Shown: in pieces, positions 803 to 9,088 of the stretch | How positions within the stretch are numbered: the stretch's first letter is position 1 | Layout of the letters: each line of letters opens with the position of its first letter | IMG/VR virus record: IMGVR_UViG_2684622669_000014 | Origin: a virus | Lineage: Duplodnaviria > Heunggongvirae > Uroviricota > Caudoviricetes | Strand: one strand, 5' to 3' | DNA length: 9,088 bases | The notes under the pieces: model-generated | The model's input: only the letters and a program-made list of their open reading frames with translations | Told to the model about the DNA's origin: nothing | Database searches by the model: none | Position numbers and translations under genes: made by a program

Positions 803-1612
803 ATGAATAATCTGATGGTTATTGATGGTATTGAAGTTCGTCGTGATGCTTATGGGCGTTACAGCCTGAACGATCTGCACAGGGCAGCCGGGGGAGAACA
901 AAAAAACCGCCCGAAATACTGGCTCTCCAATAAGCAAACCTGTGAATTGATTGAACAACTTTTCACCGAGGGTGGAATTCCGCCTCTGGAACAAAATCAA
1001 CCAGTTAGCGTCATTAATGGCGGAAATAACCAGGGGACGTATGTCTGCAAAGAACTGGTGTATGCCTATGCAATGTGGATCAGCCCGTCATTCCATCTGA
1101 AGGTGATCCGTACTTTCGATATGGTAACCAGCGCACCGGAAAAATTATCCGGGCAGGCTGCTGACAAGATGCAGGCTGGAGTGATTCTGCTGGACTTTAT
1201 GCGCAGGGAGTTAAACCTGTCTAACTCTTCAGTGCTTGGTGCCTGTCAGAAACTCCAGGAGGCTGTTGGCTTACCGAATCTGGCACCGCGCTATGCCATT
1301 GATGCTCCTGCTGATGCACACGATGGCTCAAGTCGCCCGACACTGTCACTGAGTGCACTGCTGAAACAGTATGGTATACGCCTGACGGCTAATCAGGCAT
1401 ATCACCAGATGGTGAAACTGGGGATCGTCGAGCAGCGCGAACGATACAGCCGTACCGCGATTAACAACATCAAAAAATTCTGGTCGCTGACAGCGAAAGG
1501 TTGCATGTTCGGCAAGAACATCACCAGTCCCGCAAATCCGCGCGAGACGCAGCCGCATTTCTTCGAATCCCGATTCCCTGAGCTGTTAAAGCTGCTCGAT
1601 ACCGTTCATTGA
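803..1612 (+). CDS. KilA-N domain protein (phage antirepressor/Roi-like DNA-binding protein)
   Basis: 269-aa ORF with strong SD (AAGAGGAG) 8-15 nt upstream. N-terminal ~100 aa match the KilA-N fold signature (VIDGIEVRRDAYGRYSLNDLHRAAGG...KYWLSNKQTCELIEQL...GTYVCKELVYAYAMWISPSFHLKVIRTF). Confidence 0.85.
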   Translation: MNNLMVIDGIEVRRDAYGRYSLNDLHRAAGGEQKNRPKYWLSNKQTCELIEQLFTEGGIPPLEQNQPVSVINGGNNQGTYVCKELVYAYAMWISPSFHLKVIRTFDMVTSAPEKLSGQAADKMQAGVILLDFMRRELNLSNSSVLGACQKLQEAVGLPNLAPRYAIDAPADAHDGSSRPTLSLSALLKQYGIRLTANQAYHQMVKLGIVEQRERYSRTAINNIKKFWSLTAKGCMFGKNITSPANPRETQPHFFESRFPELLKLLDTVH

Positions 1613-1613
1613 G

Positions 1614-1955
1614 GTGACCGTGAGAGCACTACTGACCCCTGAAATTGCCCCGCGTATGGGGATCGTATTGTTCAGGCCAGGTTCAGAGCTGATGCCCCTG
1701 TTTATGCAGGGGCGTGTCCTGCTGGAGCCTGAGCCGGAACGTTATTCATCTTTTGCCAGTGGTGCCGTTCCGGCTGCATCACAACCGCTGGCGGATGATC
1801 CTGCCGTTCGGGCCGTGTTCCGCAATGAGGCAGTGATCCGTCGTGCTGGTGGCGTGGAATGTCTTGAAAGCTGGTTACTTCGTGAAAAAGGCTGCCAGTG
1901 GCCTCATTCCGACTGGCACAGCGAGAACATGACCACAATGCGAAGCAACGGATAA
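1614..1955 (+). CDS. Hypothetical phage protein; possibly the N-terminal part of a YdfU/DUF968-like gene that continues in another frame
   Basis: 113-aa ORF starting with GTG immediately after the KilA-N stop. No recognisable motif. The downstream frame-1 ORF is open from 1933 and overlaps this ORF's 3' end, suggesting one gene interrupted by a frameshift. Confidence 0.5.
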   Translation: MTVRALLTPEIAPRMGIVLFRPGSELMPLFMQGRVLLEPEPERYSSFASGAVPAASQPLADDPAVRAVFRNEAVIRRAGGVECLESWLLREKGCQWPHSDWHSENMTTMRSNG

Positions 1956-1968
1956 CTGTGCCCGCTGG

Positions 1969-2529
1969 GTGTTGTCTGTTGTGCGTCGGGATCTCGGTTT
2001 TGATGACAGTCACGTTGTGACAATGCCGGAACTATGCTGGTGGCTGATTCGTAATGATCTGGCGGATGCCTTACCGGAAAGTGCAGCCCGTAAGGCACTG
2101 AGATTACCGAAGCCTTTTGTGCCGTCTGTCACCCGGGAAAGTGACCTAGTGCCTTCGGTTCCTGCCACCAGCATCATCCAGAATAAAGCGAAAAAGGTGC
2201 TGGCGCTGAAAGTGGATCCGGAGTCGCCGGACTCTTTTATGTTACGCCCAAAACGTCGCCGCTGGGTTAATGAAAAGTACACGCGATGGGTTAAGACGCA
2301 GCCGTGCGCATGTTGTGGAAAACCTGCTGATGATCCCCACCACCTGATAGGCCACGGTCAGGGTGGAATGGGGACAAAAGCGCATGACCTCTTTGTGTTG
2401 CCTTTGTGCAGAAAGCATCACGACGAGCTGCATGCGGATACTGTGGCATTCGAAGAGAAGTATGGCTCCCAGCTGGAGCTGATATTTCGTTTTATCGATC
2501 GTGCGCTGGCGATTGGTGTGCTGGCCTGA
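1969..2529 (+). CDS. YdfU/DUF968-like prophage protein with Cys/His cluster (putative zinc-binding, HNH-like)
   Basis: 186-aa ORF containing [14 protein letters not shown] ... CRKHHDELH. Sits immediately upstream of Q, as the DUF968 gene ydfU does beside the Q homolog in the K-12 Qin prophage (from memory). Start is uncertain: GTG 1969 or ATG 2027, both without a clear SD. Confidence 0.6.
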
Positions 2530-2546: not shown

Positions 2547-2924
2547 ATGCGTGATATTCAGATGGTTCTTGAGCGTTGGGGAGCGTGGGCGGCTAATAAT
2601 CATGAAGATGTGACTTGGTCGTCCATTGCCGCCGGTTTTAAGGGATTAATTCCTTCAAAAGTAAAATCTCGCCCACAATGTTGTGACGATGACGCGATGA
2701 TCATTTGCGGGTGCATGGCCCGTCTGAAAAAGAACAACAGCGATTTGCATGATTTATTGGTGGACTATTATGTCGGCGGCATGACTTTTATGGCGCTTGC
2801 ACGTAAGCATGGGCGATCTGATTGTTGGGTTGGCAGGATGCTCCAGAAAGCTGAGGGCGTAGTGGAGGGTATGCTGATGGTGTTGGATCTCCGATTGGAG
2901 ATGGATGCTGATTGTTCGAAATAA
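2547..2924 (+). CDS. Q: Late-gene antiterminator Q (phage 21/QuuD-type)
   Basis: ORF track gives 2406..2924, but the protein from the internal ATG 2547 ([34 protein letters not shown]...[16 protein letters not shown]...) matches the DLP12 QuuD-type Q antiterminator as I recall it, has an SD GGAG at 2536-2539, and avoids overlapping the upstream gene. Confidence 0.9.
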
Positions 2925-2936
2925 TTAAAGGAAAAG

Positions 2937-2965
2937 TTGCTGTCTGATTGTCATTAGTCTAACAT
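2937..2965 (+). promoter_or_regulatory. Candidate late promoter pR' (-35 TTGCTG, 17-nt spacer, -10 TAACAT); a Q-utilisation (qut) site is expected within or just downstream
   Basis: TTGCTG at 2937-2942 and TAACAT at 2960-2965, just after the Q stop. A start near 2972 with termination at tR' near 3051 would give a short ~80-nt leader as in lambdoid late operons. Hexamers are non-consensus; assignment is by position. Confidence 0.35.
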
Positions 2966-3022
2966 TTTAAATGTTGGAATCGCAACGTAGTTATTATCAT
3001 ATAACAGCTTGTTTCCTGATTT

Positions 3023-3051
3023 AGCCAGCCTCCCCAAAGGCTGGTTTTTTT
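3023..3051 (+). terminator. Rho-independent terminator, candidate tR' (target of Q antitermination)
   Basis: GC-rich hairpin CCAGCC(3025-3030)-loop TCCCCAAA-GGCTGG(3039-3044) followed by T-run 3045-3051. The minus-strand reading has no U-tail, so it is + oriented. Confidence 0.7.
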
Positions 3052-3079
3052 CTAATAAGTATTATTTCGGGTAGGGATT

Positions 3080-3604
3080 TTATTGTTTAACCCATAATAA
3101 TTCATTGACATTGAATCCCAACTTTTGAGCGGTTCGCACATAGTCTGCTTTTACTTTATCTGGAATAGTTGGGGTCCTTGCCAGAATCCATAGGTATTCT
3201 CTGTTCGGACCACTGACAAGAGCATACTTATACTCATCATCCAGTTTGATTACATTATAGCCACCATAGAAGGGGCCAAAAAACGAAACCTTCAACGCTG
3301 CAGTTTTAGTATCTCCAGTAAAGTATGCTTTACCTTCGCTCTCGCTCCATTTATTTTTCGTTGGATCGTATCCACGGTTAAGTACACGAATCCCTCCGTC
3401 GTTCCGTTTTCCATAAGTAGCGCTGACCTGTTCCAGACTACGTTCGAACCGGTTCTCGAGGCGAGCTATTTCATACCATTTTCCGAGGTAGCGGTTGGCG
3501 TCAAAATTTGTAATCGGCTGCACACCTTTAGGTGGTGTCGGGGCCTTACATGCTATAAGAGTGAAAGAGAGTGCAATGCCAGTCAACACAGGCCATAACT
3601 TCAT
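3080..3604 (-). CDS. Bacterial lipocalin (Blc-like) outer-membrane lipoprotein
   Basis: 174-aa ORF with a lipoprotein signal peptide and lipobox (LIAC) and lipocalin motifs close to E. coli Blc as I recall it (NFDANRYLGKWYEIARLENRFER, GKAYFTGDTKTAALKVSFFGPFYGGYNVI, YLWILARTP). Convergent with late transcription from pR'. Confidence 0.9.
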   Translation of the reverse strand: MKLWPVLTGIALSFTLIACKAPTPPKGVQPITNFDANRYLGKWYEIARLENRFERSLEQVSATYGKRNDGGIRVLNRGYDPTKNKWSESEGKAYFTGDTKTAALKVSFFGPFYGGYNVIKLDDEYKYALVSGPNREYLWILARTPTIPDKVKADYVRTAQKLGFNVNELLWVKQ

Positions 3605-3796
3605 AATAAATCCTGTACTTTTGATAGTTGAGAGTAAGTATGAAAGATAGATGATTACGACCGATCACTTAAAGAACTTTCATACTATATTAGGAATAGT
3701 CCATAACAGAAAAATTGTCAGTGATGACGCCAGAAAGGCAATTTATTCCGTGCACTACACAGTTTATGTGTTAATGAATTAGTCAAGGGGGAGGAT

Positions 3797-4756
3797 ATGA
3801 TAAAAAAACCTGTGATTGGAATTAGCGGTTGTTTGGCCGGTTCTGCTGTTCGTTTTGATGGTGGTCACAAAAGAGCTGACTTTTTAATGGACAAATTAGT
3901 GGAATGGGTAACATTCAGACCAGTATGTCCGGAAATGGCTATAGGGCTGCCAGTTCCGCGTCCTGCTCTACGTCTTGTGCGCTCGACGCAAGGAAATATA
4001 CGGATGTGTTTCAGCCACGACCAGAATGAGGATGTGACAGAGAGAATGACAGAGTTTAGTCGTTCTTATATGGACAAATTAAAGGATGTATCGGGGTTTG
4101 TGGTTTGTGCTAAATCTCCCAGCTGTGGCATGGAGCGCGTGCGTGTCTATGATGAAAATGGTAATCGAGGTCGTAAAGATGGAGTGGGACTATTTACGAG
4201 CACTTTGATGGAAAAGTTTTCCTGGCTACCGGTTGAAGAGGATGGGCGATTACATGATCCAGTGCTTCGTGAGAATTTTGTTGAAAGAGTTTTTGCTTTG
4301 CATGAGCTCAATCACCTTTACAAGGAGAAATTATCAAGAAGAGAGTTATTAGCTTTTCATAGTCGTTATAAGCTTCAGTTGTTGGCGCATAGTCAGGCAG
4401 GCTATAAAGATATGGGACCATTTGTGGCTGCAATACACGAGTGGGCGGACCTTGAATCATACTTTGAGGTGTATCGTGATAAGCTGATGGCGATTCTCAG
4501 AAAACCTGCATCACGTAAAAATCACACGAATGTGCTGATGCATATACAGGGGTATTTTAGTAACTACTTAAGTACACGCCAGCGTAAAGAGTTGAGCGAG
4601 GTTATACTTAACTATCGTTCTGGCACATTACCTCTTCTTGCGCCGTTGACTCTGCTGAAGCATTATCTGGGTGAGTATCCTAATGACTACTTGCTTACAC
4701 AGAATTACTTCGATCCCTATCCGGACGAACTGGCTCTAAGACTGATGGTAAATTAA
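3797..4756 (+). CDS. DUF523-DUF1722 fusion protein (TudS-like Fe-S thiouracil-desulfidase domain plus YbgA-like C-terminal domain)
   Basis: 319-aa ORF with strong SD GGGGGAGG 6 nt upstream. N-terminal domain carries the conserved cysteines expected of DUF523/TudS [4Fe-4S] proteins (GISGCLAG, PVCPE, CAKSPSCG); C-terminal half resembles DUF1722/YbgA. Mid-range GC, unlike the phage backbone. Confidence 0.85.
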   Translation: MIKKPVIGISGCLAGSAVRFDGGHKRADFLMDKLVEWVTFRPVCPEMAIGLPVPRPALRLVRSTQGNIRMCFSHDQNEDVTERMTEFSRSYMDKLKDVSGFVVCAKSPSCGMERVRVYDENGNRGRKDGVGLFTSTLMEKFSWLPVEEDGRLHDPVLRENFVERVFALHELNHLYKEKLSRRELLAFHSRYKLQLLAHSQAGYKDMGPFVAAIHEWADLESYFEVYRDKLMAILRKPASRKNHTNVLMHIQGYFSNYLSTRQRKELSEVILNYRSGTLPLLAPLTLLKHYLGEYPNDYLLTQNYFDPYPDELALRLMVN

Positions 4757-5107
4757 TTGTATGCGATATCATCCAAAAGGATGAGTTCCTGCATGCAGGA
4801 TATTTACAATCGTAAAAACTACACTATGATACCCAGAGTGTCAGTTTGTATAAAAACTCTGTTTACGCTGAAGAAACCATTGAGATGCAACTTAAAGTTG
4901 GTAAACATGCCAGTCAAAATATATAATATTATGATTCCACGCAGCTATATATAATATAACAGATTGGTTTAATAATTTGCCTTTGTGAGTTAAATACATA
5001 ATTTTATACTTGTGATGCAATGAGATTTTCCTTATTGTTGAACTGGCGAATATTGATTTTCCACCTATACTTACCTGGTGTAACCCCAATGATATCAGGT
5101 GGATAAT

Positions 5108-5839
5108 ATGCCATACATATGTTCTATCATTTTGGTGTTGAACTCGTTTGATGTCCGAATTGGTAAAGAAGATATTTTGTTTAAAAAAGGAAGTGCTGTT
5201 CTCATTGATTACAATTTAAAAGATTTTTTTTCATCAAATATAGATCATGTAATGATCGTAGATATTGAAGAGAAAACAGTTAATGATTTCTTTAAAAGCA
5301 ATACACTCTCACCTTTTTCTGTAAGAAGGTTTTATCCGGCATACTTGATGGTGGAGTGTGAAGATTTTTCATTGTTAAAGAATTTGATTGCATGCTTGAA
5401 TTGTGATGGCAGAACTGTGGATTTTGTTAGAAATCAAATATCACTTGCATGTCTTGCTATCTTATCTTCAGAGAAAATAGTGCAAAGTTTTTTATTTGGA
5501 TGTCTTAATAGTTTAGGAAGTAAAGTTAAGGCTATTATTCACACGGATATATCTGCAGCATGGAGACTTTGTGATATATCTTCAAGACTGTATTTGAGTG
5601 AAAGTCTGTTAAAAAGAAAATTAAAGCACGAAGGCTTATCATTTAGTAAGTTAATTCTTGAAGAGCGAATGGTGATGGCGGAAAGGTTATTAAGCTACAA
5701 TTTATATTCTGTTGGAAAAGTTGCTGAGATATGCGGTTATGAAAACACGTCATATTTTGTAAGTGTTTTCAGAAGATATTTTGGTGTTCCTCCCCATCAA
5801 TATTCATCAAGATTTTTTTTAGAAAAAGACATGATGTAA
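5108..5839 (+). CDS. AraC/XylS-family transcriptional regulator (Rns/GadX-like, AT-rich)
   Basis: C-terminal ~100 aa show the AraC double-HTH signature (LSFSKLILEERMVMAERLL...SVGKVAEICGYENTSYFVSVFRRYFGVPPHQY). ORF track starts at GTG 5099; I prefer ATG 5108 with SD AGGTGG at 5097-5102. Strongly AT-rich by eye, with a ~350-bp AT-rich upstream region. Confidence 0.8.
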   Translation: MPYICSIILVLNSFDVRIGKEDILFKKGSAVLIDYNLKDFFSSNIDHVMIVDIEEKTVNDFFKSNTLSPFSVRRFYPAYLMVECEDFSLLKNLIACLNCDGRTVDFVRNQISLACLAILSSEKIVQSFLFGCLNSLGSKVKAIIHTDISAAWRLCDISSRLYLSESLLKRKLKHEGLSFSKLILEERMVMAERLLSYNLYSVGKVAEICGYENTSYFVSVFRRYFGVPPHQYSSRFFLEKDMM

Positions 5840-6027
5840 CGTGATGCGTTTTAATGATTTTGTAATTTTTGTATTTGATAAATGTATGATGCTTTCAGCT
5901 ACGCCAGAATAATCGCTGGTGTTTTTCTTTTTGAATAGATGTTCAAGCCTTACGCTAATGTAACTTCTATACCTTTCCTCTTCGTTCCGAACCGTGTACA
6001 CCATCCGTTATTTGCGGAGGTGAGGCT

Positions 6028-6243
6028 ATGAAATCCATGGATAAGTTAACAACGGGCATTGCCTACGGCACCTCCGCAGGCAGTGCTGGCTACTGGTTTT
6101 TACAGCTGCTCGATAAAGTCACGCCCTCACAGTGGGCAGCAATAGGTGTGCTGGGTAGCTTGGTATTTGGCCTGCTGACGTACCTGACAAACCTTTATTT
6201 CAAGATTAAAGAAGATAAACGCAAGGCTGCGAGAGGTGAATAA
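6028..6243 (+). CDS. S: Phage-21-type pinholin (class II holin) with dual-start motif
   Basis: 71-aa ORF matching S21 pinholin as I recall it ([56 protein letters not shown]). SD GGAGG 6016-6020. Two in-frame starts (M1-K-S-M4: ATG 6028 and ATG 6037) consistent with antiholin/holin dual start. Stop overlaps the endolysin start. Confidence 0.9.
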
Positions 6244-6740
6244 TGCCTCCATCATTACGAAAAGCCGTTGCTGCTGCTATTGGTGGCGGAGCAATTGCTA
6301 TAGCATCAGTGTTAATCACTGGCTCAAGTGGTAACGATGGTCTGGAAGGTGTCAGCTACATACCATACAAAGATATTGTTGGTGTATGGACTGTATGTCA
6401 CGGGCATACAGGAAAAGACATCATGCCCGGTAAAACGTATACCAAAGCAGAATGCAAAGCACTCTTGAATAAAGACCTTGCCACTGTCGCCAGACAAATT
6501 AACCCGTACATCAAAGTCGATATACCGGAAACAACGCACGCCGCTCTTTACTCATTCGTTTACAACGTGGGTGCTGGCAATTTCAGAACATCGACGCTTC
6601 TTCGCAAAATAAACCAGGGCGATATCAAAGGCGCATGTGATCAGCTACGTCGCTGGACATATGCTGGCGGTAAGCAATGGAAAGGTCTCATGACTCGTCG
6701 TGAGATTGAGCGTGAAATCTGTTTGTGGGGTCAGCAATGA
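6243..6740 (+). CDS. R: SAR endolysin (phage-21 R-type lysozyme, T4 lysozyme-like fold)
   Basis: 165-aa ORF with a Gly/Ala-rich N-terminal signal-anchor-release segment ([20 protein letters not shown]) followed by a lysozyme domain. Start overlaps the holin stop (TAATG); stop overlaps the Rz start (ATGA). Confidence 0.9.
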
Positions 6741-7201
6741 ACAGAGTAACCGCGATTATCTCCGCTCTGGTTATCTGCATCATCGTCTGCCTGTCATGGG
6801 CTGTTAATCATTACCGTGATAACGCCATTACCTACAAAGCCCAGCGCGACAAAAATGCCAGAGAACTGAAGCTGGCGAACGCGGCAATTACTGACATGCA
6901 GATGCGTCAGCGTGATGTTGCTGCGCTCGATGCAAAATACACGAAGGAGTTAGCTGATGCGAAAGCTGAAAATGATGCTCTGCGTGATGATGTTGCCGCT
7001 GGTCGTCGTCGGTTGCACATCAAAGCAGTCTGTCAGTCAGTGCGTGAAGCCACCACCGCCTCCGGCGTGGATAATGCAGCCTCCCCCCGACTGGCAGACA
7101 CCGCTGAACGGGATTATTTCATCCTCAGAGAACGGCTGATGACAATGCAGAAGCAACTGGAAGGAGCACAGGAATATATCCGTACCCAGTGTATACCGTG
7201 A
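6737..7201 (+). CDS. Rz: Rz inner-membrane spanin (i-spanin), lambda-type
   Basis: ORF track starts at 6725, but ATG 6737 ([21 protein letters not shown]...) gives the canonical Rz N-terminal TM segment and an ATGA overlap with the endolysin stop. Coiled-coil-rich periplasmic domain; near-identical to lambda Rz as recalled. Confidence 0.88.
6957..7139 (+). CDS. Rz1: Rz1 outer-membrane lipoprotein spanin (o-spanin), embedded in the +1 frame of Rz
   Basis: 60-aa ORF wholly inside Rz, SD AAGGAG 6944-6949. Lipoprotein signal with lipobox LVVVGC and proline-rich mature part ([15 protein letters not shown]), as in lambda Rz1. Confidence 0.82.
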
Positions 7202-7666
7202 TGTTTTGTTATGAAGGTGTTACTGGTAACGTTAAGGTAATTTAACAAAAAGTCAGTTCCGGACTTTATAGTGTGCTCAGATCATGGCCAAAAACGATTT
7301 CTGTGATAAATATTTTGAATATTATTTACAGATAAATGAAGTTGTTCGCATGGATGGAAATATTACAATAGAGTATGAAGTATATGTCCGTATTGTATGG
7401 GCAGAGAAGGCAAAAACACGGTAATTCCTTGTGTTGCCATTATACCTGATTGGCAGAATAGTTGTTTGGTTTTGAGTATATAGTCAGCGTTTTTTGTTCA
7501 GTAATAGCTCTCTCAAAAAATAATAAAATAAGGTGATTATTTGGGTTTATTATTTGGTTTTTTTTGTGTGTTGTTTTGTTGTTTTTCTGTGATTTATTTT
7601 TTATTGTTATTTCATTAAAGGAAGGTAAATTCAGGATAGCAGTCTGTAGATAATCGGAGGTCACTT

Positions 7667-7981
7667 ATGCTACATGATCACCTGGCAGAATGTCTGGAGA
7701 AAAAAGGACTGTACCGGAGAGCAGCTGAACGATGGGCAAAAGTGATGGTACAGCTAAGTGATGACCAGAAAAGAAAAGTGGCGGCACAGAAACGAGCAGA
7801 GTGTTTGCGTAAGGCGCGCCGGACTCCGGTTTCACCGGTGAACCTGACAGAAATAAAACAAGCGGTCAACAGACTACATTCTGAGTTGGGAATGGGATTT
7901 GAAGAGCGGCGGGTATTCCGACGATATAAAGGGACAGGAGAACAGAATACGTCCGGAAACGCGCGGTCAAAAAAATGCTAA
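7667..7981 (+). CDS. PerC-family-like small transcriptional activator (Pch/PerC homolog candidate)
   Basis: 104-aa basic ORF with SD GGAGG 7656-7660. N-terminal LEKKGLYRRAAERWAKVM resembles the PerC/Pch signature as I remember it (..LE.KGLWRRAA..W..V). Preceded by a long AT/T-rich tract. Confidence 0.55.
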   Translation: MLHDHLAECLEKKGLYRRAAERWAKVMVQLSDDQKRKVAAQKRAECLRKARRTPVSPVNLTEIKQAVNRLHSELGMGFEERRVFRRYKGTGEQNTSGNARSKKC

Positions 7982-8061: not shown

Positions 8062-8286
8062 TTAAGTAAACCTGTCTGAACAGGTGCTCTGGTCGTGTTT
8101 GTCTTTGTTGGGTAAAAATTGAGAATATTTTTCATTAATTAATCTTCTTCTGCAGGCTTCAATAACCCACGCTGAAAAATTCCCTGAACCTTTCTGGTCA
8201 AGAGCAATATTAATTTGTTCAATCATCTGGTTTGGAAATCGGATGTTGCGGGTTGTTGTTCTTCGGGTTCTGTTCTTCGATGACAT
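8062..8286 (-). CDS. YlcI/DUF3950-like small prophage protein (putative ribbon-helix-helix type)
   Basis: 74-aa ORF on the minus strand; NIRFPNQMIEQINIALDQKGSGNFSAWVIEACRRRL matches what I recall of DLP12 YlcI, which also sits immediately upstream of the Nu1 homolog. Confidence 0.7.
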   Translation of the reverse strand: MSSKNRTRRTTTRNIRFPNQMIEQINIALDQKGSGNFSAWVIEACRRRLINEKYSQFLPNKDKHDQSTCSDRFT

Positions 8287-8682: not shown

Positions 8683-9087
8683 ATGGAAGTCAACAAAAAG
8701 CAGCTGGCTGACATTTTCGGTGCGAGTATCCGTACCATTCAGAACTGGCAGGAACAGGGAATGCCCGTTCTGCGAGGCGGTGGCAAGGGTAATGAGGTGC
8801 TTTATGACTCTGCCGCCGTTATAAAATGGTATGCCGAAAGGGATGCTGAAATTGAGAACGAAAAGCTGCGCCGGGAGGTTGAAGAACTGCGCCAGGCCAG
8901 CGAGGCAGATCTCCAGCCAGGGACTATTGAGTACGAACGCCATCGACTTACGCGTGCGCAGGCCGACGCACAGGAACTGAAGAATGCCAGAGACTCAGCT
9001 GAAGTGGTGGAAACCGCATTCTGTACTTTCGTGCTGTCGCGGATCGCAGGTGAAATTGCCAGTATTCTCGACGGGATCCCCCTGTCG
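8683..9087 (+). CDS. nu1: Terminase small subunit Nu1 (lambda-type), 5' portion; continues beyond the window
   Basis: Frame-1 reading from ATG 8683 is open to the window end (MEVNKKQLADIFGASIRTIQNWQEQGMPVLRGGGKGNEVLYDSAAVIKWYAERD...), matching lambda gpNu1 as recalled. Absent from the ORF track because no stop occurs in the window. Start is 190 nt after the first cosN base. Confidence 0.92.
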   Translation, partial: MEVNKKQLADIFGASIRTIQNWQEQGMPVLRGGGKGNEVLYDSAAVIKWYAERDAEIENEKLRREVEELRQASEADLQPGTIEYERHRLTRAQADAQELKNARDSAEVVETAFCTFVLSRIAGEIASILDGIPLS

Positions 9088-9088
9088 G

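Follow-up and report, generated by a model that had tools for sequence, protein, structure and literature searches.

Positions 1614 to 2529 of this prophage DNA hold two consecutive open reading frames (ORFs), one in frame 3 (1614-1955; 113 aa) and one in frame 1 (1969-2529; 186 aa), and the question is whether they represent two genes or a single gene that has been interrupted, and if so, by what kind of event. The best explanation, to which we assign a probability of about 0.82, is that 1620-2529 is one gene of the DUF968/YdfU family that was inactivated in a prophage by a recent, private internal deletion of 80 bp. The window analyzed here, i.e., the whole stretch of DNA, corresponds to the full length of the 9088-bp contig BBWB01000055.1 from draft assembly GCA_001515025.1. 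This right arm of a lambdoid prophage contains the following features, all assigned from the ORF list, Pfam, and the contig annotation:

71-397, LexA-like gene
394-783, RusA gene
803-1612, KilA-N gene
1614/1620-1955 and 1969-2529, the two ORFs of the broken DUF968 gene
2547-2924, plus strand, antiterminator Q (Pfam Phage_antitermQ, E 2e-51; quuD in homologous loci)
3080-3604, minus strand, lipocalin (cargo)
3797-4756, YbgA-like, DUF523+DUF1722 (cargo)
5108-5839, AraC-type regulator (cargo)
6028-6243, holin
6243-6740, lysozyme
6737-7201, Rz
7667-7981, PerC-like
8062-8286, minus strand, DUF3950
8683-9088, truncated Nu1

The slot between Q and the holin gene (2925-6027) is occupied by a three-gene cargo encoding the lipocalin, the YbgA-like protein, and the AraC-type regulator, and the GC content falls to 31 to 33% over 4800-6000. 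The same cargo is present in some Escherichia coli genomes at ~97% identity, and the closest relatives of the DUF968 flanks have a porin gene (ompC/nmpC-like) in this slot. Downstream of Rz, the segment from 7200 to 7660 has a GC content of 31% and no convincing ORF and is followed by the PerC-family gene; at the place corresponding to 7202-7981, the prophage of E. coli F2_81 carries an iss/bor lipoprotein gene. An ORF for a Pro-rich, lipoprotein-like product (6957-7139) lies inside Rz in the +1 frame. This is how Rz1 is usually arranged and is not remarkable.

An earlier note on this DNA had drawn attention to a stretch, 1933-1955, across which both frames are open. The overlap is real, being bracketed by the TGA of frame 1 at 1930-1932, after which that frame is open from 1933, and the TAA of frame 3 at 1953-1955. 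By itself such an overlap is trivial; its meaning comes from homology.

For the first part, translation most likely begins at GTG 1620 rather than at GTG 1614. The Shine-Dalgarno (SD) duplex energy was -6.9 kcal/mol for GTG 1620 versus +0.3 kcal/mol for GTG 1614, the gene caller used GTG 1620 on the contig, and the equivalent GTG is annotated in intact homologs. For the second ORF, the earlier note had seen no convincing SD sequence, and duplex energies revealed none at any of five candidate starts: GTG 1969 (-3.3 kcal/mol), TTG 1972 (-0.9), GTG 1981 (-3.7), GTG 2017 (+0.6), and ATG 2023 (+0.7). The SD scores of these candidates were no better than those of 25 to 90% of all window positions. 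Genuine starts in the window mostly ranged from -5.4 to -10.8 kcal/mol, the weakest being that of Nu1 at 8683 (-3.3 kcal/mol). The in-frame ATG that had been placed at 2027 is in fact at 2023-2025, and a 168-aa product starting at 2023 is already on record; NCBI labels an identical fragment Escherichia albertii, no more than a hint at the source.

The gap relative to intact DUF968 genes

Positions 1500 to 2700 of the window were compared by megablast with 5,426 complete E. coli genomes, and matches with at least 80% query coverage were found in 2,340 of them. The best matches were 99.2 to 99.4% identical, and all were aligned in two pieces, spanning 1,279 to 1,281 bases against 1,199 to 1,201 bases of the query, i.e., 80 extra bases. 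They are annotated as one "DUF968 domain-containing protein" between the KilA-N and Q genes; the copy in E. coli F2_81 is a 990-nt coding sequence (CDS) for a protein of 329 aa (WP_071830202.1). Pairwise and three-way DNA alignments placed the gap between positions 1943 and 1945, where the window reads CACAATGCGA followed across the breakpoint by AGCAACGG. The missing segment encodes HAPGAIRLCWHCDNQLRDQFTERLESM. The lost codons correspond to residues 109 to 135 (H/N-APGAIRLCWHCDNQLRDQFTERLESM), and as one of their 81 bases, 1944, is retained, the net loss is 80 nt. This loss moves the downstream codons from frame 3 to frame 1, and the overlap of open frames at 1933-1955 is a by-product of that change. 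The parts of the interrupted gene are as follows:

1611-1622, plus strand, ribosome-binding site (RBS) GAGG (1611-1614) and probable true start GTG 1620 (SD duplex, homolog annotation, gene call)
1620-1943, plus strand, N-terminal remnant, native codons 1 to 108, frame 3 (PHROG 96 positions 1 to 111, E 3e-47)
1943-1945, plus strand, deletion junction, with 80 bp of the intact genes missing and base 1944 (A) as the sole remainder of 27 codons
1944-1955, plus strand, out-of-frame tail Ser-Asn-Gly and premature stop TAA 1953-1955 (translation, alignment)
1945-2529, plus strand, C-terminal remnant, native codons 136 to 329 plus stop, frame 1 (Pfam DUF968; PHROG 96 positions 137 to 334)
2299-2439, plus strand, HNH/His-Me finger core, intact residues 254 to 300

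Profile comparisons gave the same picture at the protein level. An intact homolog covers positions 1 to 334 of PHROG 96 ("HNH endonuclease," 334 positions), of which the first fragment matches 1 to 111 and the second 137 to 334 (E 5e-105); positions 112 to 136 are missing from the window copy. The match to Pfam DUF968 (PF06147; 271.2 bits, well above the gathering cutoff of 27.8; E 5.1e-81; profile positions 2 to 171 of 171) lies wholly in the second ORF, as does that to HNHc_6 (28.1 bits; cutoff, 26.6), while NCBIfam yielded no match. The C-terminal remnant thus contains a complete Pfam DUF968 domain without a functional start signal. The suggestion that a single gene of ~300 aa had been interrupted was borne out, as the two translations align to contiguous, nonoverlapping parts of one 329-aa family, and neither matches an unrelated protein. 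In the enterobacterial 329-aa subfamily of PHROG 96, the protein is encoded by one ORF, whereas the fragments in the window lie in different frames; the window copy belongs to this subfamily as a pseudogene, not as an intact member.

The protein search returned 1,619 relatives. Among the best 120 of these, complete relatives were almost all 329 to 330 aa long, with identities down to 68%, and came from taxa including Salmonella, Kosakonia, Phytobacter, and Citrobacter. In an alignment of 31 full-length homologs (68 to 98% identity; Escherichia, Salmonella, Kosakonia, Phytobacter, and Citrobacter), residues C92, H96, H100, C117, W118, C120, D121, and L124 were invariant, and the last five lie within the deletion. 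The N-terminal remnant keeps C92, H96, and H100; the remainder of the N-domain motif (C117-W-x-C120-D121) is gone, with C117, W118, C120, and D121 all deleted. Of the approximately 187 phage records with a match, 171 to 173 encode the complete fusion (a match to the N-terminal 135 aa occurred in 172), and no homolog split at the same boundaries was found. The possibility of a conserved two-gene arrangement was rejected on this basis. The fused architecture extends as far as Vibrio phages (35% identity) and P1 PdcB (26% over the full length).

The surviving 909 nt are 99.2% identical to the F2_81 gene, with seven substitutions, one of them nonsynonymous (A177T). Four nucleotide differences, all synonymous, fall in the 324 nt of the N-terminal remnant, and three, causing one amino acid difference, fall in the C-terminal remnant. 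Neither remnant has acquired further stops. With only seven differences from an intact copy and no further stops, the event appears to have been recent, unless it is an assembly artifact, and we propose that the 194 C-terminal codons are still open only owing to this recency. A 44-mer across the junction was absent from the 5,426 complete E. coli genomes (megablast), and a 34-mer and a 22-mer were absent from 185,579 species-representative genomes (GTDB scan). Likewise, the junction was not present in the metagenome contigs or the viral contigs scanned, and exact N-fragment proteins were not found in a collection of 15 billion proteins. The product of the 186-aa ORF is on record from contig BBWB01000055.1 only. 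The deletion is strain private.

In an intact copy resembling the parent, the breakpoints carried no direct repeats, which argues against a slipped-strand deletion and presumably also against a shortcut taken in a k-mer-graph assembly. With an LR-33-type parent, microhomology at the breakpoints amounted to 0 nt, and an F2_81-type parent would require an additional base change. Slippage between direct repeats or microhomology is therefore unsupported as a mechanism. The sole nearby direct repeat (16 nt, with a spacing of 57) lies off the breakpoints, and a 7-nt inverted repeat that flanks the deleted region is too weak for interpretation.

Domains of the intact protein and consequences of the loss

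The Cys/His cluster that the earlier note had read as an HNH-like zinc finger indeed sits within the Pfam DUF968 and HNHc_6 matches. Ten residues that are invariant in the family (C256, C258, C259, D264, D265, H267, H268, C290, H294, and H298) are present in the window at 2299-2439. These include the predicted catalytic His and the putative zinc-ligand Cys/His residues of a His-Me finger, and the beta-beta-alpha-metal fold characteristic of such enzymes was also found. When an intact homolog (P0019) was modeled with AlphaFold2 from 31 aligned sequences (mean pLDDT, 69), this C-terminal beta-beta-alpha unit was placed at residues 265 to 268, 286 to 289, and 291 to 299. Searches of the PDB by sequence or profile gave no significant match (YbcO, E 0.28), and Foldseek hits against the PDB were nonsignificant; the best structural match of the modeled HNH domain was P1 Ref.

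In the same model, residues 104 to 124 form a beta-hairpin plus helix with a CWHC motif, followed by a long helix at 130 to 151. The deleted residues 109 to 135 comprise a strand (112 to 117), a helix (118 to 124), and the start of the long helix, with pLDDT values of 75 to 86. The N-terminal Cys/His set (C92, H96, H100, C117, and C120; window 1893-1943 plus the deleted segment) thus falls in a region predicted as a beta-hairpin plus helix. Judging from the model, it looks like a second zinc finger or a degenerate beta-beta-alpha unit that is not described by Pfam.

DUF968 and DUF1364/YbcO have been assigned to group 7 of the His-Me finger superfamily, with RusA, Q, and antirepressor genes in the DUF968 neighborhood, and DUF968 proteins have been hypothesized to act in recombination or repair as nucleases comparable to NinG and to those that depend on RecA (Jablonska et al. 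2017, PMC5714182). DUF968 has also been described as an Orf-like DNA-binding part joined to a zinc-finger HNH motif (Curtis et al. 2014, PMC4118853). Following the proposal in PMC5714182, the intact protein may act as a nuclease in recombination or replication, similar to P1 Ref, NinG, or YbcO; in the literature found, no biochemical activity has been demonstrated for any member of group 7, YdfU/DUF968 proteins included.

The intact 329-aa protein combines a conserved N-terminal Cys/His domain with a C-terminal DUF968 domain that ends in the HNH/His-Me finger core. Removal of codons 109 to 135 except for one base moves the downstream codons from frame 3 to frame 1, such that ribosomes starting at GTG 1620 would produce a 111-aa peptide consisting of 108 native residues and SNG before the stop at 1953-1955. 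Missing from such a stub would be half of the metal motif in the N-domain and the nuclease domain as a whole. The latter is most likely not made, as no candidate start of the C-terminal part has an RBS. The deletion is known from the draft assembly alone, and the sequence suggests that the locus has lost its function.

The Q gene has its own SD sequence (-6.4 kcal/mol) and starts 18 nt past the native DUF968 stop, so translational coupling to the broken gene is not an issue. Transcriptional polarity over the ~590 untranslated bases is conceivable, and it would be countered if the phage has N-type antitermination.

Alternative explanations

Three kinds of cause had been considered in the earlier note: a pseudogene, a sequencing error, and a programmed frameshift. 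Only the first of these stands, as the lesion is an 80-bp gap with the loss of 27 conserved residues. A point indel or homopolymer error is ruled out by the size of the gap.

The gap itself could still be an artifact of assembly or sequencing, if the organism carries an intact 990-nt gene that was misrepresented in the draft assembly of a repeated prophage region. We consider this unlikely. In its favor, the window comprises one whole, short contig from a draft assembly, DUF968 loci are multicopy (median of 2 and maximum of 6 places per E. coli genome) and repeats are prone to misassembly, and the junction occurs in no other genome or contig collection searched. However, a gap of 80 bp is not a homopolymer indel, and apart from it the flanks match cleanly (99.2% identity). 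Furthermore, the breakpoints share no k-mer or direct repeat, and a graph path across them would presumably need reads that contain the junction.

Alternatively, the deletion could have split the gene into functional parts, such that termination-reinitiation on the 186-aa (or 168-aa) ORF gives rise to a stand-alone DUF968/HNH nuclease. Low-level reinitiation is possible at GTG 1969, which lies only 13 nt past the premature stop at 1955, and the second ORF encompasses the complete Pfam DUF968 domain. A domain-only product could also be viable, given that DUF968 proteins of Gram-positive phages consist of an Orf-like part and HNH (PMC4118853) and that HNH-only relatives exist in Vibrio phages. 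Nevertheless, a functional split is very improbable: none of the candidate starts is preceded by an SD sequence, virtually all phage copies of the enterobacterial subfamily have the N-domain fused, and the allele is private to one assembly, with no sign of selection. Moreover, the breaks in the DUF968 genes of ST64B and PhiR49_1_star lie at other positions, which fits random decay. It is, if anything, slightly more doubtful still that reinitiation produces an accidental stand-alone nuclease of 168 to 186 aa freed from control by the N-terminal Cys/His domain. If it did, the enzyme would resemble the shorter DUF968 forms of Gram-positive phages.

A programmed +1 (or -2) frameshift within 1933-1955 that fuses the two frames was rejected as next to impossible: the 23 nt open in both frames and the +1 direction of a change from frame 3 to frame 1 would allow it, but in thousands of close homologs the gene is a single ORF that is 80 bases longer, making the frame change a by-product of the deletion, homologs do not share a two-frame organization containing a shift site, the overlap (ACC ACA AUG CGA AGC AAC GGA UAA) is by eye unlike familiar shift sites, the local RNA fold is ordinary (z, -0.84), no Rfam match was obtained, and even with a ribosomal shift, the protein would be missing the invariant CWxCD.

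With inactivation by a deletion as the preferred reading, annotations should combine the 111-aa and 186-aa ORFs into one entry marked as a pseudogene and not list a hypothetical protein and, separately, a short DUF968 protein. As the window copy illustrates, an intact DUF968 gene is dispensable for carriage of the prophage; the lesions in ST64B and PhiR49_1_star are independent. The N-terminal domain could be probed through the loss of residues 109 to 135, the segment with the invariant CWxCD. Overall, this is an ordinary prophage pseudogene of a known HNH-nuclease family, the value of the finding lies mainly in annotation, and no open biological question is touched.

Comparison with known systems

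The closest known counterparts are the genes for the 329-aa DUF968 protein in E. coli F2_81 and in phage mEp460, SfII, and Stx2 phages; the surviving 909 nt are 99.2% identical to the F2_81 copy. These loci occupy the same slot as the gene in the window (LexA-like, RusA, KilA-N, DUF968, Q), i.e., a position in the nin region with RusA and KilA-N on one side and antiterminator Q on the other, and the start codon, stop codon, and HNH core are the same. The window copy differs by the missing 80 bp (residues 109 to 135) and the resulting frameshift, which leaves ORFs of 111 and 186 aa.

P1 Ref is a RecA-dependent HNH nuclease. It is a small single-domain HNH protein (PDB 3plw), unlike the two-domain DUF968 protein, and it is as a hypothesis that RecA dependence has been put forward for DUF968 proteins in the literature. 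YbcO of the DLP12 prophage in E. coli K-12 (PDB 3g27) is likewise an HNH-only protein of 96 aa and belongs to His-Me finger group 7. YdfU of the Qin prophage, also in E. coli K-12, is a DUF968 member that has been placed in the same group (PMC5714182). Among more distant proteins, P1 PdcB (AF234173.1 pdcB; OP279344.1 82422-83441) shares 26% identity with the 329-aa DUF968 protein in a full-length alignment.

The DUF968 gene seems to decay repeatedly in phages and prophages. In the Escherichia phage PhiR49_1_star (L005:1501-2486), the DUF968 copy is 1 nt short and the CDS ends early. In the Salmonella phage ST64B (L004:1537-2491), the same gene is present as two overlapping ORFs, sb47 and sb48, between a regulator gene and Q, as in the window. 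The break in ST64B, however, is a 1-nt length change near residue 240, in contrast to the 80-bp deletion at residue 109 in the window. As the lesion in ST64B is independent, the presence of two ORFs does not reflect a conserved arrangement.
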